Shown here: positions 47,053-59,890 of the stretch, one piece after another | How the letters are laid out: each line of letters begins with the position of its first letter | How positions within the stretch are numbered: the first letter of the stretch is position 1 | Assembly (NCBI GenBank): GCA_017480245.1 | Contig: JAFVBA010000004.1 | Coordinates: 11-64,010, forward strand | Length of the DNA stretch: 64,000 bases | Reading direction: 5' to 3' | Source: Bacteroidales bacterium | GTDB lineage: Bacteria > Bacteroidota > Bacteroidia > Bacteroidales > P3 | Position numbers and translations under genes: made by a program | The notes under the pieces: model-generated | Database searches by the model: none | What the model was told of the DNA's origin: nothing | The model's input: only the letters and a program-made list of their open reading frames with translations

Positions 47053-49179
47053 TTACTTAACAAAACCTTGTTGTTTCAAAAATGCTTCGTTGGTTGGTTC
47101 GTGTCCGCGGAAAGCTTTGTAGAGTTCCATCGGTTTTTTACTTCCTCCGCGTGAAAGAACGTTCTTTCTGAATGACGAACTTACTGCAGGATTAAAGATT
47201 CCTTGCTCTGTGAATGCTTGATAAGCATCGGCAGCAATAACTTCGCTCCATTTATATCCGTAATAGCCTGCTGCATATCCGCCTCCGAAGATATGGGAGA
47301 ATTGAGTACTCATCATGCAGCCGTCAATCATAGGCATAAGTTCGGCTTTCTTGCTTGCCGTTTGTTCAACAGCCAATACGTTACCGTCAAACGGTTTCTC
47401 AATTGAATGCCATGTCATGTCAAGGATTCCGAAGAACAACTGACGGATTGAAAGCCAGCCTGCGTTGTATTGTTGTGCCTCACGAATACGGTCAATGTAC
47501 TTTTGCGGAATCTTGTCGCCTGTCTTGTAATGAACGGCAAACATATCCAAGAATTCTTTTTCGTATGCGTAGTTTTCCATAAACTGGCTCATGCCTTCAA
47601 CGAAGTCATGGGCAACGCTTGTTCCCGAAAGAGATTGATAAGTGCATTCGGTAACTATGCCGTGCAGACAATGGCCGAATTCATGCAGAAATGTAGTTAC
47701 TTCATCGAAGGTAAGTAGGGAAGGAGTCTTGCTTGTAGGTTTGGAAAAATTGGTTACAAGTTGGATTAACGGGCGTATTTCGTTGTTATTGACCTTGCTC
47801 TCTTCACGGAATGAAGTCATCCACGCACCTTGACGCTTATTATCTCTTGGGAAGAAGTCCATATAAAGCACAGCCATGAACTTATTGCTCGTTTTGTCCC
47901 AAACCTCATATACTTGTACGTCTTTATGATAAACAGGTATGGATTTGTTTTCGCGGAATTCAAGGTTGTAAAGTTTTCCTGCCAATTCAAAGATACCTTT
48001 CTTTACATATTCCAAATTGAAATAAGGTTTCAACAGTTCTGGAGATATATCGTATTTTTCTTTTTGCAATTTTTCTGAATAGAAAGAGAAATCCCAACGG
48101 TTCAGAGTGCCTGAAAAACCATGTGCATTGGCATAATCCTGTACGGCTTTCAAATCCCGCTGTGCGTAAGGCATACTTGTGTTAAGTAAATCGTTAAGAA
48201 AATCATTTACTTTGGCAGGTTTTTCCGCCATCTTATCTTCTAACTCATATTCAGCGTAAGATTGATAACCCAAAAGGTTAGCAATCTTTAAGCGAAGATT
48301 GACAATATCTTTTATTACCTGCTTATTGTCGTTGGTATCGCCGTGATTTCCCATGGAATTGTACGCACGCCAGATTTTTTCCCTTATCTCACGGTTAGGA
48401 CAGTAAGACATAACGGCAACATAGGACGGTTGGTCAAGCGTAAAGGCGTAACCTTTCATGCCTCTTGCCTTTGCCTCTTGCTGTGCAGCCTCCAAAGCGT
48501 ATGCAGGCATACCTTCAACGTCTTTTTTGTTGGTAACATTCAGAACAAATGCGTTTTGGTCGTTTAAAACGTTCTGATTGAATTTCAAAGACAACACGCT
48601 TAACTCTTCATTTGCCTTGCGGAATTCTTCTTTTGCTTCTCCAGTAAGTAATGCTCCGTTTTTAATAAATCCTTTATAGACTTTGTCCAAAAGCATACGG
48701 TCTTCGGTCGTCAGTTTGATAAAATCACGGTTGTCATAGACCATTTTGATTTTGGCAAACAACTGCGGATTCATACTGACATCGTTGCTGTATTTGGTAA
48801 GGATAGGAGTAAGTTCTTGGGCTATCTGTTGCATTTCTTCAGATGTGCAAGCCTCGTTCATATTAAACAATATGGAAGAAACCTTATCCAATATTTTTCC
48901 GCTCTGTTCGTAAGCCACGACAGTGTTTTCAAATGTCGGATCGGCAGTATTGGAAATTATTTTATTGACATCGTCCTTTGCTTTCTCTATTGCGTAAAGC
49001 ATTGCAGGTTTGTAATGTTCCGTCTTGATTAAATCAAAAGGCGGCGTTTTTTGCGGTGTATTCCACTGCATAACAAGCGGATTGGAAGATTTTATTTCGT
49101 CCATTTCCTGTTTTGACATCTGTGCTGATAATAATGTTGTAGCCATAAGCATTGATGTTATTAAAAGTTTTTTCTTCAT
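47053..49179 (-). CDS. dcp: M3 family metallopeptidase (peptidyl-dipeptidase Dcp-like)
   Basis: HEFGH zinc motif. 708 aa with a signal peptide. Confidence 0.85.
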   Translation of the reverse strand: MKKKLLITSMLMATTLLSAQMSKQEMDEIKSSNPLVMQWNTPQKTPPFDLIKTEHYKPAMLYAIEKAKDDVNKIISNTADPTFENTVVAYEQSGKILDKVSSILFNMNEACTSEEMQQIAQELTPILTKYSNDVSMNPQLFAKIKMVYDNRDFIKLTTEDRMLLDKVYKGFIKNGALLTGEAKEEFRKANEELSVLSLKFNQNVLNDQNAFVLNVTNKKDVEGMPAYALEAAQQEAKARGMKGYAFTLDQPSYVAVMSYCPNREIREKIWRAYNSMGNHGDTNDNKQVIKDIVNLRLKIANLLGYQSYAEYELEDKMAEKPAKVNDFLNDLLNTSMPYAQRDLKAVQDYANAHGFSGTLNRWDFSFYSEKLQKEKYDISPELLKPYFNLEYVKKGIFELAGKLYNLEFRENKSIPVYHKDVQVYEVWDKTSNKFMAVLYMDFFPRDNKRQGAWMTSFREESKVNNNEIRPLIQLVTNFSKPTSKTPSLLTFDEVTTFLHEFGHCLHGIVTECTYQSLSGTSVAHDFVEGMSQFMENYAYEKEFLDMFAVHYKTGDKIPQKYIDRIREAQQYNAGWLSIRQLFFGILDMTWHSIEKPFDGNVLAVEQTASKKAELMPMIDGCMMSTQFSHIFGGGYAAGYYGYKWSEVIAADAYQAFTEQGIFNPAVSSSFRKNVLSRGGSKKPMELYKAFRGHEPTNEAFLKQQGFVK

Positions 49180-49228
49180 TTTTTAATTATGTTTATTCAA
49201 TTATAAGTTTGCGTAAAATTAACGTTTG

Positions 49229-49236
49229 CAAAATTA
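49229..49236 (-). promoter_or_regulatory. -7 box (TAATTTTG on the minus strand) for dcp
   Basis: The plus strand reads CAAAATTA. Confidence 0.5.
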
Positions 49237-49289
49237 CAAAAAATTCAAAAATTATATCTATATATCAACGGTATTTCAAAATTTCTTTG

Positions 49290-49297
49290 TACTTTTG
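49290..49297 (+). promoter_or_regulatory. -7 box TACTTTTG driving the structured leader and the TerB-like operon
   Basis: The context TTTCTTTGTACTTTTGCAA is nearly identical to that of the promoter at 52318. Confidence 0.55.
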
Positions 49298-49301
49298 CAA
49301 A

Positions 49302-49590
49302 GTCAATTAAATGATTGACATAGTAAATTGAGCTTGATGCTTATGTTCTCTGATTGCAAAGTCTGGAAAACTTGCTAAGGTATGAGAATAATAAGAATGA
49401 TAGTTCTACGCTTGGGCGTGAATTATTCTATCCTTATTATACCGAGGTATTCCAGACACCAGCAATTAAATTAAGGCTATTTTGAAGATTTACGTCTTCT
49501 TTTTATTCCTTAAACATATGTCTCAATCTCAAAACAGGGAATACCGAAAACTGTTTTTAGAGTAGGTGCGTTTAAAAAAATTAAAAAACA
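49302..49590 (+). ncRNA. Structured ~290-nt leader or candidate ncRNA upstream of the TerB-like gene
   Basis: A +1 hairpin GTCAAT/ATTGAC. A 97-nt multi-tier hairpin (49361-49457; GTCTGGAA/TTCCAGAC, GGTAT/ATACC, AGAATAAT/ATTATTCT, ACGC/GCGT). Two hairpin-plus-T-run elements (49484-49506, 49531-49558). Confidence 0.45.
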
Positions 49591-49968
49591 ATGGAAAATT
49601 TTTCTTTTACAAAACAAGAAATGGCTGCTGTTATAAAAATGGCAGGTATAATGGTAGCAGCGGATGGTATTGTTCATCAGAATGAAAAAGAGATGATGAC
49701 AAAAGAAGTTATGAGATTTAATATCCCCTTAAATGAGGTAGCAATGTTAGTAGAAAAGGCTAAAACAATGGAATCAGATGTTGCCATTGCTACAATAGCG
49801 ATCATGACCGATGCTCAAAAAAGATATGTTACTGCATATTTGGGAGCAATGATAGCGATAGATGGAGATGTTGATGATAAAGAGGTTGCTCTATGGTCAT
49901 TAGTATCACAAATCTGTCATCTTCCAAACATGACAATAGCAGAGGCAATAGATTATTTGGATAATTAA
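49591..49968 (+). CDS. TerB-like (tellurite-resistance TerB fold) small protein
   Basis: Two ADG/IDG....E motifs (MVAADGIVHQNEKE and MIAIDGDVDDKE). 125 aa, all-helical character. Confidence 0.5.
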   Translation: MENFSFTKQEMAAVIKMAGIMVAADGIVHQNEKEMMTKEVMRFNIPLNEVAMLVEKAKTMESDVAIATIAIMTDAQKRYVTAYLGAMIAIDGDVDDKEVALWSLVSQICHLPNMTIAEAIDYLDN

Positions 49969-49984
49969 AAAGAAGCAAAAACTT

Positions 49985-50701
49985 ATGGGACTATTTGATT
50001 TATTCGGAAAGAGTGGTAATGAATCATCTCTGAAAAGAAATAATACAAGCCAAAATTCTTTTTTACAAGATTTATTACATGGCAGTAATAATCCTTGTGC
50101 AGGAGCAATTGAGATAACTTTTGATTATCATCAACGCTATGAAAACGGCAATCCTGTATTAGGAGAACAAAACCACAAAAGAACCCTCAAGATTGAAAAG
50201 AATGTGTCAGGTGATATTGGATATACTGTTTCAATTAATCCTAGTATGTCGCCAAAAAGGATGAAAGTAATATCTTGTAGTAATGATAAGATTAAACTTC
50301 AAGGTTACGGATATGACAATAATGCTGTTATGATGGGCGTTCCAAAAGAAGCGGCATCATTTGAGTGTTATGCCTTGACTCTTAACGTTGCAAGTAGTGG
50401 AGTTTTAGATCGGGCAATTATTAGTTGCGATCTTCATTTGTTGGATAGAAATATAGATTTGAAATACTACCGACACAGTAAAGAAGAAAAGGAAACTATT
50501 AGTACAAACCAAGAAGATGCACAGGCTCAATATAATGCTGGAATTCTATATATGAAACAAAAAGATTATAAAAAAGCCGTGCATTATTTCACGCAATCGG
50601 CAAAACAGGGGTTCGTGCTAGCACAATATAATTTAGGAGTATGCTATCTCAATGGTGAGAAGGAGTTTCACAAGACAAGGAACAAGCTGTATATTGGTTA
50701 A
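49985..50701 (+). CDS. Hypothetical protein with C-terminal Sel1 repeats; the last repeat is frameshifted
   Basis: AQAQYNAGILYMKQKDYKKAVHYFTQSAKQGFVLAQYNLGVCYLNGE is Sel1-like. The canonical continuation GVSQDKEQAVYWLKKATNQGFQPAKEVL is in another frame, running to 50760. Confidence 0.6.
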   Translation: MGLFDLFGKSGNESSLKRNNTSQNSFLQDLLHGSNNPCAGAIEITFDYHQRYENGNPVLGEQNHKRTLKIEKNVSGDIGYTVSINPSMSPKRMKVISCSNDKIKLQGYGYDNNAVMMGVPKEAASFECYALTLNVASSGVLDRAIISCDLHLLDRNIDLKYYRHSKEEKETISTNQEDAQAQYNAGILYMKQKDYKKAVHYFTQSAKQGFVLAQYNLGVCYLNGEKEFHKTRNKLYIG

Positions 50702-50771
50702 AAAAAGCCACTAATCAAGGTTTTCAACCAGCAAAAGAAGTTTTAATGATTGTTGAATAATACAAATAAAG

Positions 50772-50797
50772 GCAGAGATTGTGATTCTCTGCTTTTT
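50772..50797 (+). terminator. Rho-independent terminator after the Sel1 gene
   Basis: GCAGAGA...TCTCTGC followed by TTTTT. Confidence 0.7.
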
Positions 50798-50957
50798 GGT
50801 TTATTATTTCTTTGTAAGGTTCAAACAAAATATTCTTCATTGTTAAGAAATTGACTTGTGTTATAATAATCCTGTCTGAAATTTGTCAGTTTTGTTGAAA
50901 AATTGTTGGTTTAAGGATAACATAGAAACAAGATAAAACTGTCCAATTATAAGTTTT

Positions 50958-51046
50958 CAGAATAAAACGGCGTTTCCAAAAATTGTTTTCTGAAAAGAAT
51001 CTGACGAAGTGGCGTTTTACGGCAACGAAACGTCACTTTATTTTTG
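50958..51046. repeat. Repeat family A, degenerate copy (left boundary of the islet)
   Basis: CAGAATAAAACGGCGTTTCCAAAAATTGTTTTCTGAAAAGAAT...AAACGTCACTTTATT. Confidence 0.6.
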
Positions 51047-51298
51047 GCTTAAAACACAATAATTTACGGAAATTAGACTTGTTCTTACGGAAATATTATA
51101 ATGAGATTATTTTGCTTGGTATTGCAAAGTTACAACAAATTATTGATATACGGAAATTCCACACTGTTGGCAAAAGGTAGAATTTGAAAGTAATTGTTAT
51201 AAAATTTGTACGCTGTTTTTAAGAAACTAAATTTAAAGATTTTCGTAAAATGTTTATATCTTTTTGATTGCAACAATCCGTAAGACGTGAAAAAATTG

Positions 51299-51306
51299 TA
51301 ACTTTG
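51299..51306 (+). promoter_or_regulatory. -7 box TAACTTTG for the Bro-N gene
   Basis: TAnnTTTG match about 48 nt upstream of the ATG. Confidence 0.5.
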
Positions 51307-51353
51307 CAAAAGATTATAATAAGACACAATGAAAACAAGATAATGATAATATT

Positions 51354-52214
51354 ATGTCGCAACAAGAAGCATTAAAACTGTTTGAAACAAAGAAAGTCCG
51401 CACCGTTTGGGATAACGAGAAAGAGAGATGGTATTTTGCCGTCGTGGATGTTGTCGCTGTATTAACCGACAGCGTAAATCCACAGGCCTATTGGAGAAAA
51501 TTAAAACAACGGTTGATAGAAGAAGGCAATCAAACCGTGACAAATTGTCACGGTTTGAAGTTGACGGCTGCGGACGGTAAGAAAAGATTAACCGATATGG
51601 CTGATACTGAGCAGTTATTCCGTATTATCCAGTCTATTCCGTCGCCTAAGGCAGAGCCGTTTAAGATTTGGATGTCGCAGGTTGCAAGTGCAAGATTGGA
51701 ACAGTTGCAAGACCCGGAGAAATCTATTGACCAAGCCGTAAAAGATTATAAACGGTTGGGATATAGCGATAAGTGGATAACGCAACGCATACGTTCAATA
51801 GAAGCAAGAAAGGAATTGACGGATGAATGGCAGAGAGGCGGAGTGAAAACAGGACAGGAGTTTGCAATGCTTACTGATTTGATGCTTCGGACATGGAGCG
51901 GTTTGACGACAAGGGAATACAAGGATTATAAAGGTTTGCACAAAGAAAGTTTGCGGGATAATATGACAAACATAGAGATTGCTTTAAACACTTTGGCTGA
52001 AGTATCTGCAACCGAATTGTCAAAACAAAAGAATCCGAAGAGAATATCCCAACACCGTAATATTGCAATGCGTGGCGGAGAAATAGCAAATACGGCACGC
52101 AAAGAACTTGAAAAAGATTTAGGTAAGAGTGTTATTTCCTCAGCAAAAGCAAGCGATTATCTTATATCTGACAATGATGTAAAGTTATTAGACGAGAAAG
52201 AAAACGAACAATAA
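51354..52214 (+). CDS. Bro-N domain protein (phage antirepressor / DinD-like)
   Basis: Bro-N hallmarks: VRTVWDNEKERWYFAVVDVVAVL and SPKAEPFKIWMSQV. The C-terminal half is DinD-like. Confidence 0.75.
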   Translation: MSQQEALKLFETKKVRTVWDNEKERWYFAVVDVVAVLTDSVNPQAYWRKLKQRLIEEGNQTVTNCHGLKLTAADGKKRLTDMADTEQLFRIIQSIPSPKAEPFKIWMSQVASARLEQLQDPEKSIDQAVKDYKRLGYSDKWITQRIRSIEARKELTDEWQRGGVKTGQEFAMLTDLMLRTWSGLTTREYKDYKGLHKESLRDNMTNIEIALNTLAEVSATELSKQKNPKRISQHRNIAMRGGEIANTARKELEKDLGKSVISSAKASDYLISDNDVKLLDEKENEQ

Positions 52215-52317
52215 AAAGGTAGTACTAATAGCAATAAACATAATAAAACAGCAGGTGAAAACAAATTCTTTGCCGTTTTTATTTTATTGTTTTAATTTTC
52301 AATTCAAATTTTCTTTG

Positions 52318-52325
52318 TATTTTTG
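52318..52325 (+). promoter_or_regulatory. -7 box TATTTTTG driving the structured leader and the MTase-nuclease operon
   Basis: Context is TTTCTTTGTATTTTTGCAG. Confidence 0.55.
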
Positions 52326-52327
52326 CA

Positions 52328-52605
52328 GTTGCAATAGTGCAACATAACAAGCAATAACTATTATTTCACATTCAAAATAAGTCCGACAAACTCATTTTGC
52401 AAAAAAGAAATAAAATAGTTCAGGCAAAGTTCTGTTTGAAATAGGTCTTACAAAACAAAGTTTGCACCTTAGGTGTATAACTTTCTATGTAAGACAAGGT
52501 ATTCAATGTCGGACTTTACCTGAATGTGAGTAGAACAAGTTTACACCTTATTTTATTTGTTTTTATTAAAAAGTGATTGATAGTTTTTGCAAAAATTATC
52601 AATCT
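52328..52605 (+). ncRNA. Structured ~275-nt leader or candidate ncRNA (or MITE) upstream of the methyltransferase
   Basis: A +1 hairpin GTTGCA/TGCAAC. A 162-nt hairpin (52367-52528) closed by CACATTCA..AAGTCCGACA / TGTCGGACTT..TGAATGTG. An inner hairpin GTCTTACA/TGTAAGAC with AAAGTT/AACTTT and CACC/GGTG. The duplicated segment AAGTTT(G/A)CACCTTA gives alternative pairings. Confidence 0.45.
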
Positions 52606-53580
52606 ATGTCTGATAGTAAGAGTTTAAGTAATGCCAGAAAGGCAAAGAAAGATGAATTCTATACTCAATTAGAAGATATTGAGAAAGAATTAAAACATTA
52701 TAAACAACATTTCAAAGGAAAGACTGTTTTGTGTAATTGTGATGACCCACGGGTAAGCAATTTATTTACCTATTTTTCACATCATTTTGAATCGTTAGGG
52801 TTGAAAAAACTTATAACCTCCTGTTATAAGAACCAAGATATTGATTTGTTTTCACAAAATTCATCAGATAAAGCCGTATATTTGGAATATACAGGCGACA
52901 AAAACGGAAACAAAATACCCGACAGGGAAGAAATAGAAGTAAAACCATTGCATGATAACGGAGATTTCCGTTCCGATGAATGCAAAGAACTTCTAATGCA
53001 AGCGGATACAGTAGTTACCAATCCGCCGTTTAGTTTATTCAGAGAGTATTTGCAACAAATCATTGATTTTGATAAAAAGTTTTTAATAATTGGCAATGTC
53101 AATGCAATAACATATAAAGAGTGTTTCAAATTAATTAAAGACAATAAAATGTGGTTAGGTGCAAGTATTCACAGCGGCGACAGAAAATTCGGCGTTCCTG
53201 ATGATTATCCATTGAATGCTGCAACCTGCGGAATAGATGATAAAGGGCAAAGGTTTATAAGAGTTAAGGGCGTTCGTTGGTTTACTAATATGGATTACAA
53301 AGAGCGACACGAGGATTTGCCTTTATATAAAAAGTACAATGAGCAGGAATATCCGAAATACGATAATTATGATGCAATAAATGTAGATAAAACTTCGGAT
53401 ATTCCGTGCGATTATTACGGTATTATGGGCGTACCTATAACTTTTATGTATAAATATAATCCCGACCAATTTGAAATTTTGGGATTAGATAATCATAATT
53501 TGAATAATAGTCTGGGATTAGGTGCAAATTCAATTAAAGGTAAGACTATTTATAGGAGAATAATAATTAAAAGAAAGTAA
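52606..53580 (+). CDS. EcoRI-family N6-adenine DNA methyltransferase
   Basis: N-terminal DEFYT and CNCDDP blocks and the catalytic TNPPF motif typical of the EcoRI_methylase family. I prefer the ATG at 52606 over the GTG at 52573. Confidence 0.8.
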   Translation: MSDSKSLSNARKAKKDEFYTQLEDIEKELKHYKQHFKGKTVLCNCDDPRVSNLFTYFSHHFESLGLKKLITSCYKNQDIDLFSQNSSDKAVYLEYTGDKNGNKIPDREEIEVKPLHDNGDFRSDECKELLMQADTVVTNPPFSLFREYLQQIIDFDKKFLIIGNVNAITYKECFKLIKDNKMWLGASIHSGDRKFGVPDDYPLNAATCGIDDKGQRFIRVKGVRWFTNMDYKERHEDLPLYKKYNEQEYPKYDNYDAINVDKTSDIPCDYYGIMGVPITFMYKYNPDQFEILGLDNHNLNNSLGLGANSIKGKTIYRRIIIKRK

Positions 53581-53584
53581 AATT

Positions 53585-54691
53585 ATGGAAGTAAAATTGC
53601 ATGAAATAACCGTAAGACAATTAGTTGATGGTTATGAAAACAGAGAAGACGAAGGTGTTGTTGGATTCGGCGGAAAATTAGACATACGTCCGCCTTATCA
53701 AAGGGAATTTATCTATTCTGCAGACAAACAAAAAGCCGTTATTGACACAATATTCAAGAATTTTCCGCTGAATATAATGTATTGGGTCAAAAGAGATGAC
53801 GGTACATTTGAAGTTATGGACGGGCAACAGCGAACTATGAGTATTTGTGAGTATTATTGTTGTAATTTTTCAATAGAAAAGGACGGTTATTTGAAAGGTT
53901 ACGACAACCTTACCGATAAAGAACAGGAGGATTTTCTCAATTATAAACTTATGGTTTATTTTTGCGAGGGCGATGATTATGAAAAATTGCAGTGGTTTAA
54001 GACAATAAACATTGCAGGCGAGGATTTGTCCGACCAAGAAATGAGAAACGCAGTATATAACGGCTCATGGGTGAATAATGCAAAGGTTTGGTTCAGCAAA
54101 AAAGTAGCAGGATGTCCCGCATATCAGATAGGAAGCCCGTATATTGCCTCTTCGGTGAAAATAAACCGCCAAGGGCTGTTGGAACTTGCGATAAAATGGA
54201 TAAGCAAGGGCAACATCAATGAATATATGAAGCAGCATCAACACGACAAAGACGCAACGGAACTTTGGAATTATTACAAAAACGTCATTGAGTGGGCTGA
54301 AAATCTGTTCGGAAAGCCGAGAAAAGAAATGAAAGGCTTACCTTGGGGCGAGTATTACAATGAATATAAAGACCAAGAGTTTAATCCCGAGGCTATTCAA
54401 CAAAGAGTTGATTTTCTTATGCAAGACGAGGAGATAGAAAGCAAAAAAGGTATTTATCTTTATGTGCTTGACGGCAAGGAAAAGCATCTTAATTTGCGTC
54501 AATTCCCTGAAAATATCAAGCGAACGGTATATGAAAAACAGGAAGGCAAATGTTTTGTTTGCAAAAAGGAATTTGAGTTTGAAGATATGGAAGGCGATCA
54601 TTGGAAACCGTGGCATGACGGAGGTAAAACGGAAATAGATAATTGCCGAATGTTATGCCGTGATTGTAACAGGGAAAAATCCGGCAAGTAA
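53585..54691 (+). CDS. DUF262 (ParB-like, DGQQR) plus C-terminal HNH nuclease; GmrSD-like restriction component
   Basis: DGQQR motif (VMDGQQRTMSI). C-terminal HNH GDHWKPWHDGGKTEIDNCRMLCRDCNREK. The start is 4 nt after the MTase stop. Confidence 0.8.
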   Translation: MEVKLHEITVRQLVDGYENREDEGVVGFGGKLDIRPPYQREFIYSADKQKAVIDTIFKNFPLNIMYWVKRDDGTFEVMDGQQRTMSICEYYCCNFSIEKDGYLKGYDNLTDKEQEDFLNYKLMVYFCEGDDYEKLQWFKTINIAGEDLSDQEMRNAVYNGSWVNNAKVWFSKKVAGCPAYQIGSPYIASSVKINRQGLLELAIKWISKGNINEYMKQHQHDKDATELWNYYKNVIEWAENLFGKPRKEMKGLPWGEYYNEYKDQEFNPEAIQQRVDFLMQDEEIESKKGIYLYVLDGKEKHLNLRQFPENIKRTVYEKQEGKCFVCKKEFEFEDMEGDHWKPWHDGGKTEIDNCRMLCRDCNREKSGK

Positions 54692-54765
54692 GTTGTAAAT
54701 CATTTTGTTTAGATTTGTTCTAATATAGCGGAAAAACAAATTAAAACATTTAAGATTATATATCA

Positions 54766-54830
54766 CAGAAATAAAGCGGCGTTTCATAAAAATTAAAGTC
54801 GCACATTATTCTGACAAAGTGCGACTTTAT
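54766..54830. repeat. Family-A left arm (direct repeat of 50958-50984) followed by a hairpin terminator AAAGTCGCAC/GTGCGACTTT
   Basis: CAGAAATAAAGCGGCGTTTCATAAAAATT compared with CAGAATAAAACGGCGTTTCCAAAAATT. The hairpin spans 54795-54830. Confidence 0.6.
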
Positions 54831-54908
54831 TGTATTAATTTGCGACTTTAATTTTGACAAGTGTCATTTTGTGTTTTTGAAAAGTAACACTGTTGTATCT
54901 TTTTCATA

Positions 54909-56663
54909 TCAGAAGAAAAATTTGTTTAAAAATGTGTTGTCAAGGCGTAAAAATACACGTTCGTTCATTGGTAAAAATTCCGGGTTATTACATTGAAGCA
55001 ATTGATTAATTAAATTTGTCATTTCGTTTTTCGACAATATTTTACCGTTTCTTATTGCTAAGCGGTCAGCAATTAATAACGGCTTGTCGTCTTCGTTAAT
55101 ATCTTCGCTTATTACTTCATTGATAAGATTCATTGCAGCAAGTGTTGTCATCTCTTTAGGCATAGAGGTGAAATCTACGCTATCGTCTTCATTGACAGTA
55201 AATTCAAAACCAATATTTCTTAACAAATCCTCTCGGGCTTGCAAAGAAATTATCTCCAATTGCGAGAACTTGTGAGTGTATGGCAACAAGAGTTTTTCAC
55301 TTGGCAATATCATAGAAGTTTTACCTTTCAAAAAGTCGTGTATTACTTTCTTTGAAGCGTTAAACTGATTGATTAATAAAATAGAGTTATTATTTTGATA
55401 AACAATGTATTTATTCAAAAATTGGAATGGGCGGATTGTTTCAGTAACTTGTGAGTTATCGTTCTGTGATGAAGATACGTTTTCACCATTGAAGGAGATC
55501 TCGGTTTGAACCTTGACTTTATTGACAGGAGCGGAGAAGTCAAAAGACGGATTGGCGGTTTGCTTGGCAAAAGGATTGAAACTGCTGTTGTAATTCAACT
55601 TCGGTTGAGTTGGAATGTAGTTTTTATCCGGCGAAGGAAACGTAATAGGTTCTTTTTCAAACGAAAGAGTAGAAGCAACAGCAGATTGCCCCAATGCTTT
55701 TCTTACTGTAGCATTTAAAATTGAGTATATAATTTTGTCGTCTAAGAATTTGACTTCCGTTTTTGTCGGATGGATATTTACATCTATGTCTTTAGGATTG
55801 ACTTTCAGGTGAATAAAAAAGCAAGGATAAGTTTTCGGCGGAATAAGTGATGAGTAAGCCCGTTCTACTGCATTGGCAAAATACGGACTTTTCATATAGC
55901 GGTTATTAACAAAGAAATACTCGTAGTTTTTGGACTTTTTAGTTAAATCAATTGTAGAGATAAATCCGACAATCTCCACTAAATCAATTTTTTCTTTAAT
56001 TTCTAAAAGATGTTTACTGAAACCGCTGCCAAAAATATCCACAATACGTTTTCTCAGTGTGGATTTGTCTAATTTATATATAGTCTGCCCGTCTTTAATA
56101 TAGGTAAAAGCAATTTGAGGATTGATAAGAGCAATACGGATAAAGGCTTCGGTGATATGACTACCCTCAACGCTGTCGCTTTTAAGGAAATTACGTCTTG
56201 CAGGTACGTTAAAAAATATGTTTTTTACCTTAATATCAGTACCTTTTGGCGAAGTAGTCTTACTAACCGACTTTATATCGCCGCCTTCTATGATAATCTC
56301 GTTTGCAAGTTCCTCATCTTCCTGTTTTGTACGCAGTTCTACCTGTGCAATTGCGGCGATGGAGGCAAGGGCTTCACCACGGAAACCCATGGTTGTGAGA
56401 TTTCTCAAATCACTTTCAGCTTTTATCTTGCTGGTTGCATGAGGCAGGAAACATTTTTGTGCATCCGCTTCGTCCATACCGCAACCGTTGTCAATAACTT
56501 CCACTAAGGTACGGCCTGCATCTTTTATTATTAAAGTAATGCTTGAACTTCCTGCATCAACAGCATTCTCCATCAATTCTTTAACTGCACTTGCCGGACG
56601 GTTTACTACTTCTCCCGCCGCAATTTGATTTGCTATGTTTTCGGGAAGAATATTTATTGCCAT
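54909..56663 (-). CDS. mutL: DNA mismatch repair protein MutL
   Basis: N-terminal IAAGEVVNRPASAVKELMENAVDAG (GHKL ATPase). Confidence 0.9.
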   Translation of the reverse strand: MAINILPENIANQIAAGEVVNRPASAVKELMENAVDAGSSSITLIIKDAGRTLVEVIDNGCGMDEADAQKCFLPHATSKIKAESDLRNLTTMGFRGEALASIAAIAQVELRTKQEDEELANEIIIEGGDIKSVSKTTSPKGTDIKVKNIFFNVPARRNFLKSDSVEGSHITEAFIRIALINPQIAFTYIKDGQTIYKLDKSTLRKRIVDIFGSGFSKHLLEIKEKIDLVEIVGFISTIDLTKKSKNYEYFFVNNRYMKSPYFANAVERAYSSLIPPKTYPCFFIHLKVNPKDIDVNIHPTKTEVKFLDDKIIYSILNATVRKALGQSAVASTLSFEKEPITFPSPDKNYIPTQPKLNYNSSFNPFAKQTANPSFDFSAPVNKVKVQTEISFNGENVSSSQNDNSQVTETIRPFQFLNKYIVYQNNNSILLINQFNASKKVIHDFLKGKTSMILPSEKLLLPYTHKFSQLEIISLQAREDLLRNIGFEFTVNEDDSVDFTSMPKEMTTLAAMNLINEVISEDINEDDKPLLIADRLAIRNGKILSKNEMTNLINQLLQCNNPEFLPMNERVFLRLDNTFLNKFFF

Positions 56664-56926
56664 TTTTCCACAAAAGAGATTAAGAAATAGATTAAAGCGA
56701 CCACCACACAGGCGAATAATAAAATCTTTGTCATAGGAAAAGGCTTTGAAATCTTCTTTTCCTTTTTGTCTTCCATAGCCTTACGGAAACTAATCTTGCG
56801 GTTATAGGTTTCTCCTATCGGTCCGTACTTGGCTTTCAACTGTTCCAACTCGTCTTTTTGAGGGTCATAAAAACGCGGTTTATAATTAAACTGACGCGGC
56901 TTTCTTACACTGAATACAATTCCCAT
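56654..56926 (-). CDS. Small membrane-anchored hypothetical protein upstream of mutL
   Basis: 90 aa with a C-terminal TM segment. Overlaps the mutL start by 10 nt, with a promoter box upstream. Confidence 0.55.
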   Translation of the reverse strand: MGIVFSVRKPRQFNYKPRFYDPQKDELEQLKAKYGPIGETYNRKISFRKAMEDKKEKKISKPFPMTKILLFACVVVALIYFLISFVEKWQ

Positions 56927-56948
56927 ATCAATCTGTTATTTTAAGGTG

Positions 56949-56956
56949 CAAAGTTA
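56949..56956 (-). promoter_or_regulatory. -7 box (TAACTTTG on the minus strand) for 56926..54909
   Basis: The plus strand reads CAAAGTTA. Confidence 0.5.
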
Positions 56957-57070
56957 GTAAATACATTTTGAATTGCATTAAAAAAGCAAATAATTTTTAC
57001 GCACCCAAAAGACATTTTCTCTATTGCGCAATTTATTTCTGCAATAGGGCATAACAATTTTGCAATCACT

Positions 57071-57219
57071 GAAAATAATTTTGCAATTTCAGAAAAGAAT
57101 TTTGTCAGGACGGTTCAAAATGTACTTTTGGACGGTTTAAAACTATATTTTGGACGGTCTGAAATTCTGTTTTGAACCGTCTGAACAAAATTCTTTTCTG
57201 AAATTGCAAAATTATTTTG
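57071..57219. repeat. Repeat family C copy: ~35-bp terminal inverted repeats enclosing four GGACGGT/ACCGTC units
   Basis: Left TIR GAAAATAATTTTGCAATTTCAGAAAAGAATTTTGT, with its complement at 57185-57219. Internal units are at about 57108, 57130, 57152 (direct) and 57173 (inverted). Confidence 0.75.
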
Positions 57220-57315
57220 CGGTATTACAAAATTCTTATCGCTTATTACAAAAATAATATAAGCATTAACGGGAAAATTTTACAGATTTTTTATTGTCAA
57301 TTGGAAATTTTTGAG

Positions 57316-57323
57316 TATTTTTG
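57316..57323 (+). promoter_or_regulatory. -7 box TATTTTTG for gyrA
   Basis: The TAnnTTTG match lies inside the TTG-started track ORF, so the true start is downstream. Confidence 0.5.
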
Positions 57324-57337
57324 CACATTATTTCAAA

Positions 57338-59890
57338 ATGAATATGGAAGAAAACGAAAGAATACAACGAGTTGATATAGAAACTCAAATGAAACAAGCC
57401 TATATTGACTATGCCATGAGCGTAATTGTTGCACGTGCTTTACCCGATGCAAGAGACGGCATGAAGCCTGTACAACGCAGAATTATGTTTGCAATGGGCG
57501 ATATGGGAATGACTTACAACACTAAACACAAGAAGTCAGCCAGAATAGTAGGAGAGGTATTGGGTAAGTACCATCCGCACGGCGATTCTTCCGTTTATGG
57601 TGCTATGGTGCGTTTGGCTCAAAAATGGGCTTTAAGATATCCGTTGGTTGATGGGCAAGGTAACTTCGGTTCGGTGGATAATGACCCTCCTGCAGCAATG
57701 CGTTATACCGAGGCGAGAATGTCCCGTATTGCATCGGAGTTATTGCAGGATATTGATAAAGATACGGTAGATTTTCAAAACAATTTTGATGACTCTTTGA
57801 AAGAACCCGTAGTCCTTCCGACAAGAATCCCTAACCTTTTGGTCAATGGAACTAACGGTATTGCGGTTGGTATGGCTACCAATATGGCTCCTCACAATTT
57901 GAGCGAGGCTGTTGATGGTATTATCGCATATATAGATAATAATGAAATAAGTATTGACGAGTTGATGGCGTATATAAAAGCCCCGGATTTTCCTACGGGA
58001 GGCGTTATTTACGGATATGACGGCGTCAAAGAAGCATACCATACCGGCAGGGGAAGAGTGGTAATCCGCGCCCACGCATCAATAGAGCATGACGACAAAA
58101 CCGATAAGGAGCAAATAGTTGTTACATCCATTCCTTACGAAGTGTGCAAGAGTGATATGATTCACCATCAGGCCGAATTGGTTAATGATAAGAAAATAGA
58201 AGGTATTGCACAGATTAAAGACGAAAGTAATAAGGACGGAATAAGGATAGTATATAAATTAAAGAAGGATGCAATAAGCAGGGTAGTGCTTAATAAGTTG
58301 TACCAATATTCAGAATTGCAGTCATCTTTTTCAATTAATAATATAGCGTTAGTAGGCGGCAAACCGAAATTACTTAATCTTAAGGATTTAATTGTCAATT
58401 TCGTTGAACACAGAAAAGAAGTTGTTGAGCGCAGGACACGTTATGAGTTGAAGAAAGCCGAAGAAAGAATGCATATTGTAGAAGGTCTTTTGAAGGCTTT
58501 GGATATCATTGACGAGATTATAGACGTTATCCGTTCTTCTCAAACAGTTCAGATAGCGAAAGACACAATGATTGAGCGTTGGGGCTTTACGGATTTACAG
58601 GCTTCGGCAATCGTTGAAATGCGTTTAAGACAACTGACAGGTTTGGAGCGTAACAAGCTGCAGGATGAACACGATAAGTTGGAGGAATTTATCCAGCGTT
58701 GCAAGGAAATACTATCCGATATAAACGTTCTTATGCAGGTTGTCAAGGATGAACTATTGGCTATAAAGGAAAAGTACGGCGATGCACGCAAGAGCGAAAT
58801 AGAATATTCTTCTAAGGACTTTGTAATAGAGGATATGATACCTAATCAAGAGGTTGTAATATCCGTTTCCCATTTAGGCTATATCAAACGTACGTCTTTA
58901 AATGAGTACAAAACGCAAAACAGAGGCGGAATGGGAAGTAAAGGTTCTGTTACAAGGGACGGCGATTTCATCGAACATATTTATATAGCCTCTACGCACG
59001 ATTACCTATTGATGTTTTCCAATAAAGGTAAGGTTCATTGGATGCGCGTATATGAAATACCGGAAGGCAACAAGACTTCAAAAGGCCGTGCAATCCAGAA
59101 TATGTTACAAATAGAGGAAGGGGAGAAGATACATGCCTTTGTCAATACCCGGGACTTAAAAGACGCGGATTACGTAAATAATAATTTTATTATCCTTTGC
59201 ACGAAAAACGGAATAATAAAGAAAACATCCTTAGAGGCATATTCCCGTCCGAGAACAAAAGGTATCATTGCCTTAACAATACGCGAGGGCGACGAATTGC
59301 TTGAGGCTAAACTGACTGACGGTAAAAATGAAATATATATAGGAACTAAAGCCGGCAGGTGCGTACGCTTTAACGAGGAGTTAATACGCCCGATGGGAAG
59401 AGGCGCATCCGGAGTAAAGGCTGTTACATTGGCAGATGATAATGACGAAGTTATCGGAATGGTTTGCCTTGACGATATGACAAAGAACATAATGGTTGTA
59501 TCGGAAAACGGATACGGTAAGCGGAGTGACAGTGAGGAATACCGCAAAACCAACCGCGGAACTAAGGGAGTTAAAACTATTAACATAACTGACAAAACGG
59601 GTGCATTGATTGCAATAAAGGACGTAACGGATGATGACGACCTTATGATAATGAACCGCTCGGGAATAACAATCCGTCTTGCTGTCAATTCCTTACGTGT
59701 AATGGGTAGGGCAACTCAAGGAGTAAGGTTGATAAATTTGAAAAAGAAGGATGTTATTGCTTCAGTTACCAAAGTTCAACACGAAGAAGTTGAAGAAATA
59801 GGAGAGGAGAATGAAAACGGTACGGAAGTTGTTACGGACAATTCGGAAGTAACGGCGGAAAATACTGAAGTTACTCAGGATAATCAATAA
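57338..59890 (+). CDS. gyrA: DNA gyrase subunit A
   Basis: [24 protein letters not shown] and the [12 protein letters not shown] (QRDR) motif. C-terminal beta-pinwheel repeats and an acidic tail. Confidence 0.92.

Follow-up and report, generated by a model that had tools for sequence, protein, structure and literature searches.

We analysed a 64,000-nucleotide (nt) stretch of a Bacteroidales bacterium genome (assembly GCA_017480245.1, contig JAFVBA010000004.1, positions 11 to 64,010; hereafter the window), in which two open reading frames (ORFs) on the same strand encode a DNA methylase and a nuclease that together form a genuine, intact and mobile Type II restriction-modification (R-M) system, whose family is catalogued and very common. 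The first gene (52606..53580, + strand) encodes an N6-methyladenine (m6A) DNA methyltransferase (MTase) of the M.EcoRI family, 324 amino acids (aa) long, assigned from its match to PF13651, the PADLOC MTase_II call and its identity to M.EcoRI. Its stop codon TAA (53578-53580) is separated by the 4-nt spacer AATT from the ATG (53585) of the second gene, which encodes a restriction endonuclease (REase) of 368 aa (53585..54691, + strand). An earlier note, made from the sequence alone, had described this pair with its 4-nt gap, motifs and domain assignments, and the ORFs, their translations and Pfam searches confirm that description.

The methylase ORF extends from a GTG codon (52573..53580), while the conserved start is ATG 52606; the in-frame GTG sits within a conserved palindrome and is not used in the gene calls of this genome's other assemblies, which begin at ATG 52606. 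The translation contains the motifs DEFYT, CNCDDP and TNPPF (with NPPF) and matches both Pfam PF13651 (EcoRI_methylase; E=5.5e-138, profile positions 2-345 of 345) and the PADLOC-DB profile PDLC03297 (Type II MTase, 332 positions; E=3e-126). Compared with authentic M.EcoRI, the protein is 55.1% identical by tblastn and 56% identical by alignment over residues 2-291, and a sequence search of the PDB with the methylase gave no match. Every tblastn alignment, from about 160 loci plus M.EcoRI, ends at residue 291. The last ~33 residues (292-324; window 53479-53580) are hypervariable across the family, and this tail already differs between the window and L001, a locus in a second Bacteroidales metagenome-assembled genome (MAG).

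Domain organisation and conservation of the nuclease

The nuclease is comprised of an N-terminal DUF262/ParB-Srx-like domain (residues ~1-160), a helical middle domain (~161-300) and a C-terminal zinc-ribbon HNH domain (~305-368). Its translation carries QREF and DGQQR in the N-terminal domain, which matches PF03235 (GmrSD_N, DUF262; E=1.6e-16, residues 34-158, 61.4 bits vs a cut-off of 33.2), and DHW..WHDGG..N..LC..CN at the C-terminus, which is a PF01844/PF14279 HNH domain (PF01844, E=3.9e-13, residues 323-366). PF07510 (DUF1524) has no match in the nuclease at E<=0.01. An alignment of 30 homologs from across phyla has a mean column identity of 75% and leaves Q39-R40-E41-F42, D79-G-Q-Q-R83-T84, C323, C326, D338-H339, N353, C354, C358 and N362 invariant. 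By these residues, the nuclease active site of this separate endonuclease is intact, and, given that both signature motifs of the DUF262 domain are invariant, this domain probably still binds nucleotide.

An AlphaFold model of the nuclease (predicted local distance difference test, pLDDT, 86.5; predicted template modelling score, pTM, 0.73) shows an alpha/beta fold in the N-terminal domain, helices only in the middle and a beta-beta-alpha unit at the C-terminus. In Foldseek searches against the PDB, the N-terminal domain resembles the CTP-binding domains of ParB and Noc as well as sulfiredoxin, with weaker likeness to BrxU (7p9k) and SspE (6jiv, 7drr), while the C-terminus resembles the HNH domain of Gme, T4 endonuclease VII, McrA and the Cas9 HNH domain; the same searches gave no full-length structural relative, and a PDB sequence search with the nuclease found nothing past an isolated HNH motif. 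Kinship with IscB or Cas9d was considered and set aside, as the corresponding NCBIfam HNH matches are sub-threshold only and were taken as domain-level similarity.

Ends and mobility of the cassette

A single-sequence query against genome contigs returned one close locus. L001 carries the same cassette at another chromosomal place, between unrelated flanks. Homology between the window and L001 is restricted to window 52306-54695, that is, to the leader, the methylase gene and the nuclease gene, which bears out the earlier suggestion that the operon sits in a small islet. Because L001 has the same cassette in a different chromosomal context, the methylase and nuclease genes form a mobile cassette that has transposed as a unit. 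Its left end (52306..52335, + strand) includes a stretch kept in the alignment with TTTG at 52314-52317 and TATTTTTG at 52318-52325, which resembles the Bacteroidetes -7 box TAnnTTTG, and we regard this stretch, on the strength of the known consensus, as a putative promoter. The right end (54692..54695, + strand) is set by the loss of L001 homology at 54695, 4 nt past the stop codon. Similarity between the two copies is mosaic: the nucleases are 97% and the methylases 82% identical in amino acids, and the leaders about 74% identical in nucleotides.

Linkage to EcoRI-family methylases and cataloguing of the pair

The nuclease belongs to a very large family of about 8000 or more clusters at 90% identity (all but one of 8000 scored candidates reach E<=1e-5), with full-length relatives at 55-60% identity in Bacteroidota, Spirochaetota, Elusimicrobiota, Patescibacteria, Desulfuromonadota and others. 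Five relatives were looked up in isolate genomes, MAGs and metagenome assemblies, and each has an EcoRI_methylase gene as its neighbour, usually upstream and once downstream. An EcoRI-family methylase gene is adjacent on the same strand at 76 of 80 metagenome loci, two further loci having <230 nt of upstream sequence, and at 78 of 80 viral-contig loci, the remaining two being without upstream DNA; combined, 154 of 156 informative loci have the adjacent methylase. The gap between the genes in these relatives is a few nt, or the stop and start codons overlap, and both gene orders occur. The pair is also plasmid-borne in Macrococcoides, Pediococcus, Moraxella and many other genera, and it is among the commonest arrangements of the EcoRI-type methylase family. 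Its carriers include Ornithobacterium rhinotracheale (CP178594) and Macrococcoides canis (pMiCAN82a). This near-obligate linkage, together with the mobility of the unit, argues for a cognate mobile R-M cassette and not for a Type IV enzyme chancing beside a methylase. One Flavobacterium phage encodes a full-length nuclease homolog at 37.5% identity.

The earlier note had ranked the pair as a candidate for an undescribed defence system and had called for co-occurrence statistics. The pair does recur elsewhere, as the counts above attest, but it is already catalogued: in PADLOC-DB, the Type II REase profile PDLC03418 matches nuclease residues 2-368 on profile positions 2-372 of 372 (E=4.5e-122), so that full-length Type II profiles match both proteins. 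The PADLOC R-M profiles, which we take to descend from REBASE-derived clusters, would lead standard defence-annotation tools to label the pair RM type II, whatever the provenance of the profiles. As a search for a new defence system, the result is negative, since existing profile sets call the pair Type II R-M and it cannot be counted as new. The GmrSD-like and BrxU models of PADLOC are unmatched by the nuclease, and its DUF262 part alone hits NsnA and PD-T4-2_A.

General annotation names the nuclease family just 'DUF262 domain-containing protein' or 'HNH endonuclease family protein', so that standard genome records conceal many R-M systems. The source names of the cluster members are likewise generic, with no characterised prototype among them. 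LraI, an EcoRI isoschizomer, was considered as a prototype and rejected, as it is described as EcoRI-like (PMC5896346). The family appears to be uncharacterised in the open literature searched. In a Brevinematales lineage (L003, L004 and L005, 7126-9477), the R-M pair is followed by a gene for a 783-aa AAA_13 ATPase with integrase genes alongside, a setting that looks like a defence or integrative island.

A conserved structured RNA precedes the operon

The upstream gene and the methylase gene are 390 nt apart, with no + strand ORF of at least 50 aa in 52215-52572. The sequence is conserved with L001 from 52306 onward and includes a leader of ~270 nt. Its minimum free energy (MFE) lies far below that of shuffled sequences, with z-scores of -6.05 for the window and -7.93 for L001; together with covariation across eight loci, these values uphold the earlier description of a long structured leader. 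Within it, a structured RNA domain (52351..52535, + strand) has outer helices P1 and P2 around a junction with several hairpins. Six further metagenome cassettes (L019, L059, L067, L069, L081 and L088) share the leader, and their methylases are only 47-64% identical to that of the window. RNAalifold predicts 46 pairs from the eight leaders, and compensatory double changes are seen in 28 of these. In the 5' domain, such changes occur in 21 of 30 pairs and 90% of cells pair, against 36-40% with slid 3' partners; in 500 column shuffles these values were never reached. One additional covarying helix around the inner hairpin, which MAFFT misaligns, can be recognised by eye (GTCTTACA/TGTAAGAC in the window, TCCATTAT/ATAATGGA in L001).

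A covariance model of the leader (R1) scores the window at 143.9 bits on the + strand vs 26.9 bits on the - strand; the eight training loci score 135-171 bits, a ninth, divergent copy (L027) 32.8 bits, and reverse strands <=27 bits. All nine copies lie directly upstream of the methylase gene on the coding strand, and the model yielded no other convincing hit, whether in the rest of the window, among the remaining metagenome loci or among 80 viral loci (~1.27 Mb of related loci). Rfam 15, searched over 49000-57500, has no match in 52215-52605 at E<=1. One clade of these cassettes is preceded, then, by a well-supported structured RNA that is absent from this RNA family library.

The MFE fold places a hairpin, AGAACAAGU / AUUUGUUUU, followed by a U-rich run, at 52532..52568 (+ strand), and this resembles a terminator or attenuator. 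Its helix shows GC-to-AU exchanges in the eight-locus alignment, and the form GAAAGG..CCTTTC followed by a T-run is clearer in L059 and L069. Next comes a near-perfect 30-nt inverted repeat, GATTGATAG-N12-TTATCAATC (52575..52604, + strand), which is identical in L001 and ends 1 nt before the methylase ATG. The repeat is kept as GATTGATAG-N12-17-CTATCAATC in L019, L059, L067 and L069, has variant arms in L081 (GATTGGTAG/CTACCA) and L088 (GAATGATAG/CTGTCATTC), and stops, in most loci, 1-5 nt short of the ATG; its form would suit either a hairpin that occludes the start site or an operator. A search of viral contigs for GATTGATAG-N10-20-CTATCAATC gave 28 hits, none beside either gene of the pair and none with the leader, which we take to be chance or unrelated hairpins. 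An alternative pairing of the conserved CUAUUAUUU, 5' of P1, with the 5' arm of the start hairpin would fit all eight sequences and may be anti-sequestering; it stays hypothetical because it shows no compensatory changes.

The order of an aptamer-like domain, a terminator and a start-site hairpin would correspond to a riboswitch or attenuator layout, for which the data indicate no ligand or protein partner. The RNA could sense S-adenosylmethionine, S-adenosylhomocysteine or another signal of methylation capacity, or bind the methylase or the ParB-like nuclease. In six other cassettes (L039, L040, L046, L075, L083 and L086), an ORF ending in ...LGISSSELLK, helix-turn-helix-like and read only from the DNA about 90 nt upstream of the methylase gene, stops a few nt before the methylase start, and these ORFs resemble the controller (C) proteins of Type II systems. 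With the leader RNA in some cassettes and a C-like ORF at the same place in others, the family seems to use at least two interchangeable regulatory modules.

The recognition sequence

The window methylase is 55-56% identical to M.EcoRI and falls within the same family as methylases paired with EcoRI-type nucleases, which makes GAATTC our best guess for the recognition site, and a reasonably probable one. Its PLSDB matches include M.EcoRI itself, encoded on small ColE1-type plasmids of E. coli beside the 'type-2 restriction enzyme EcoRI', and it is 53-54% identical to the methylases beside an 'EcoRI family type II restriction endonuclease' on plasmids of Leuconostoc and Staphylococcus rostri (53-57% to methylases next to EcoRI-family REases). 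In an alignment of 139 methylases, those that partner DUF262-HNH nucleases share 42-64% identity (median 55%) with M.EcoRI and 37-100% (median 58%) among themselves; 29% of them are more distant from the window methylase than M.EcoRI is. The three methylases paired with EcoRI-type nucleases form a tighter subgroup: they are 67-74% identical to each other, above their identity to the methylases of DUF262-HNH pairs, and the specificity may therefore have shifted. If the site is GAATTC, the nuclease, whose fold is unrelated to that of EcoRI, would be its isoschizomer or neoschizomer.

Word counts were also compared. Site counts inside the cassette gave no pointer to a recognition site, and word avoidance pooled over 72 host flanks (367 kb) and 80 viral loci revealed general palindrome avoidance only, with no outlier and with GAATTC mildly low. 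In the window, GTNNAC is about 14-fold under-represented, with 10 sites (at 31, 1532, 1622, 26825, 51560, 52539, 53280, 56012, 56601 and 61436) vs about 145-155 expected, and GATC about 11-fold, with 15 observed vs 172 expected. Both were considered as the site of the cassette and rejected, the depletion being absent from other hosts of this R-M family, and it is accordingly attributed to other systems of this lineage. The depletion points to further restriction systems, present or of long standing in the lineage and encoded outside the studied region, for example Hpy8I/MjaIV-like for GTNNAC and DpnII/MboI-like for GATC. CTAG, GGCC, CCGG and TCGA are also strongly depleted in the window, and L001 shows the same trend overall, GTNNAC and GATC included.

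Proposed mechanism and alternative explanations

We consider it likely that the locus is a mobile Type II R-M cassette of cognate methylase and nuclease under the control of its leader RNA, with GAATTC as the most probable site. The M.EcoRI-family methylase would mark host copies of this short recognition sequence by N6-adenine methylation, and the nuclease, co-transcribed from the gene 4 nt downstream, would cut unmethylated copies by means of its C-terminal HNH domain (beta-beta-alpha-metal, zinc-ribbon) and be blocked by the methylation of its partner. The DUF262/ParB-Srx-like domain, through its QR.F and DGQQR motifs, probably binds a nucleoside triphosphate (NTP) and gates or assists cleavage as in GmrSD-type enzymes, while the helical middle domain probably reads the DNA sequence. 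Expression of the operon, whose cassette has no controller protein, would pass through the leader RNA, where the multi-helix domain is followed by the terminator-like hairpin and then by the hairpin that buries the nucleotides before the methylase start codon; most likely, this alternative regulatory module limits or times the expression of both enzymes. A bolder version of this proposal makes the leader an undescribed class of cis-regulatory RNA that gates an R-M operon in place of a controller protein, as a riboswitch-like element or a protein-responsive attenuator, and may also make the nuclease an NTP-gated Type II isoschizomer or neoschizomer of EcoRI, of unrelated fold, that partners EcoRI-type methylases oftener than R.EcoRI does; we hold this possible and lean somewhat against it.

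Several results weigh against the proposed Type II system with a GAATTC site. Two of the 80 metagenome loci (L034 and L035) have a nuclease gene and no DNA methylase gene within 2-4 kb, and a search of the open literature found no paper on a DUF262-HNH Type II enzyme and named no characterised REBASE prototype. The observed/expected ratio of GAATTC is only mildly low, at 0.67-0.85 in the window, the host flanks and the viral contigs, and no lower than that of many other palindromes, while the strongest depletions of the window are unshared by other hosts. Methylases at 55% identity can, moreover, differ in specificity. The nuclease homologs at L034 (1756-2859) and L035 (2127-3230) are full length, with neighbours that include a RuvB-like ATPase fragment, an NYN domain protein, a T5orf172 protein and YchF, and could be solitary enzymes with a methylase elsewhere or parts of decaying systems.

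The earlier note had left two arrangements open, a GmrSD-like N-terminus put to Type II self/non-self logic with a dedicated m6A methylase, or protective methylation combined with an independent modification-dependent nuclease. Under the second, the methylase would guard against another nuclease or be regulatory, and the DUF262-HNH protein would be a Type IV enzyme like GmrSD or BrxU travelling along with it. Although the N-terminal domain is a bona fide DUF262 domain with DGQQR, and BrxU and SspE are among its weak structural matches, the linkage of the nuclease to one methylase family, with gaps of a few nt or overlaps, is the pattern of a cognate pair and favours the first arrangement, in which the nuclease would be blocked by the methylation. 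The absence of DUF1524 and the unmatched GmrSD-like and BrxU models speak the same way, and a nuclease that depended on m6A from its own partner methylase would be self-destructive. We therefore regard a travelling Type IV enzyme as very improbable.

That the Type II logic holds while the site is a relative of GAATTC with an AATT core (RAATTY, CAATTG), or an unrelated sequence, seems unlikely to us, though far less so than the Type IV reading. The identity to M.EcoRI is below the 80% at which one published pipeline transfers motifs between methylases (Nanomotif preprint), the EcoRI-paired methylases group with each other, and GAATTC avoidance is not distinctive; yet M.EcoRI lies inside the diversity of the DUF262-HNH-paired methylases, its alignment to the window methylase covers all except the C-terminal tail, and the great uniformity of the nuclease family suggests a single specificity. 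Between these two in probability, and improbable in its own right, is the idea that the leader, instead of regulating the R-M operon, is a separate small RNA, a mobile-element remnant or a site of recombination at the DNA level. The arms of the start-proximal palindrome are kept in sequence, as expected for a protein operator, and the cassette boundary lies just upstream of the leader. The palindrome arms are, however, 12 to about 17 nt apart, an awkward spacing for a dimeric DNA-binding protein, and the G-U pairs, like the far lower score of the reverse strand, are signs of an RNA; the position of all nine copies, next to the methylase start on the coding strand and nowhere else in the related loci searched, also favours a leader that acts on this operon.

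Comparison with known systems

The cassette shares with the EcoRI R-M system (GAATTC) its methylase family, with similarity extending over 290 residues, and the format of a two-gene mobile cassette that is often plasmid-borne; the recognition sequence would probably also agree. It differs in the nuclease, which is a DUF262 and HNH protein where R.EcoRI is a PD-(D/E)XK enzyme, and which has no tblastn match on the EcoRI plasmid (L205), and in gene order, with the methylase gene first here vs the nuclease gene first in EcoRI-type cassettes. HNH enzymes often leave different ends (see also Orlowski and Bujnicki 2008, PMC2441816), so the window nuclease may be a neoschizomer of EcoRI. The nuclease is probably a second, unrelated partner for the EcoRI methylase, which would provide a natural pair of unrelated nucleases that can be compared on one site.

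The earlier note had likened the nuclease to GmrSD, BrxU and SspE. The likeness stands for the N-terminal DUF262/ParB-Srx-like domain with DGQQR, to which the common fold is limited in the case of GmrSD and BrxU, and, in outline, for the helical segments and a C-terminal His-Me nuclease; it fails at the C-terminus, which is a PF01844 zinc-ribbon HNH domain where theirs is DUF1524, and in length, the nuclease with its 368 aa being ~200 residues shorter than the solved chains of BrxU (7p9k) and SspE (6jiv), which have 560-580 residues. Unlike these enzymes, it is tied to a cognate methylase and catalogued as Type II, not Type IV. A ParB/Srx-like DUF262 domain, known from modification-dependent enzymes, would thus also serve in an enzyme that is blocked by methylation.

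Type II enzymes of the HNH class, such as KpnI, Hpy99I, PacI, SphI and NlaIII, have a beta-beta-alpha-metal site, often with CxxC...CxxC zinc coordination, and a separate methylase (Pingoud et al. 2014, PMC4081073). The window nuclease likewise has a beta-beta-alpha-metal site and a separate methylase, whereas that review mentions no ParB/Srx-like putative NTP-binding domain in any of the HNH enzymes it discusses. Compared with R-M systems under C-protein control, the leader stands in the equivalent place, just ahead of the first gene, and presumably serves the same end of setting the level or timing of methylase and nuclease, but it is a non-coding structured RNA, holding no ORF and absent from Rfam 15. 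The conserved leader is the most novel feature of the cassette and a testable candidate for RNA-based control of an R-M operon.

Neighbouring genes

Directly upstream of the cassette, and outside the part shared with L001, lies a gene (51354-52214, + strand) for a 286-aa Bro-N domain protein, which aligns end to end with PDC-S13, a candidate defence family of PADLOC (E=3.3e-126), and has sub-threshold likeness to DNA-damage-inducible protein D. It is preceded by a low-GC non-coding stretch of ~650 nt (50702-51353). Between the genes for an M3 peptidase and the Bro-N protein are those for a small TerB-like protein (49591-49968, + strand) and a Sel1/TPR-repeat protein (49985-50701, + strand). 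Together with the R-M cassette, these three genes lie in a partly low-GC stretch between housekeeping genes (M3 peptidase, mutL, gyrA). Where the nuclease gene and mutL converge, their spacer contains, outside the cassette homology, a strong hairpin, AAAGTCGCAC...GTGCGACTTT (54797-54830), which is probably a bidirectional terminator.

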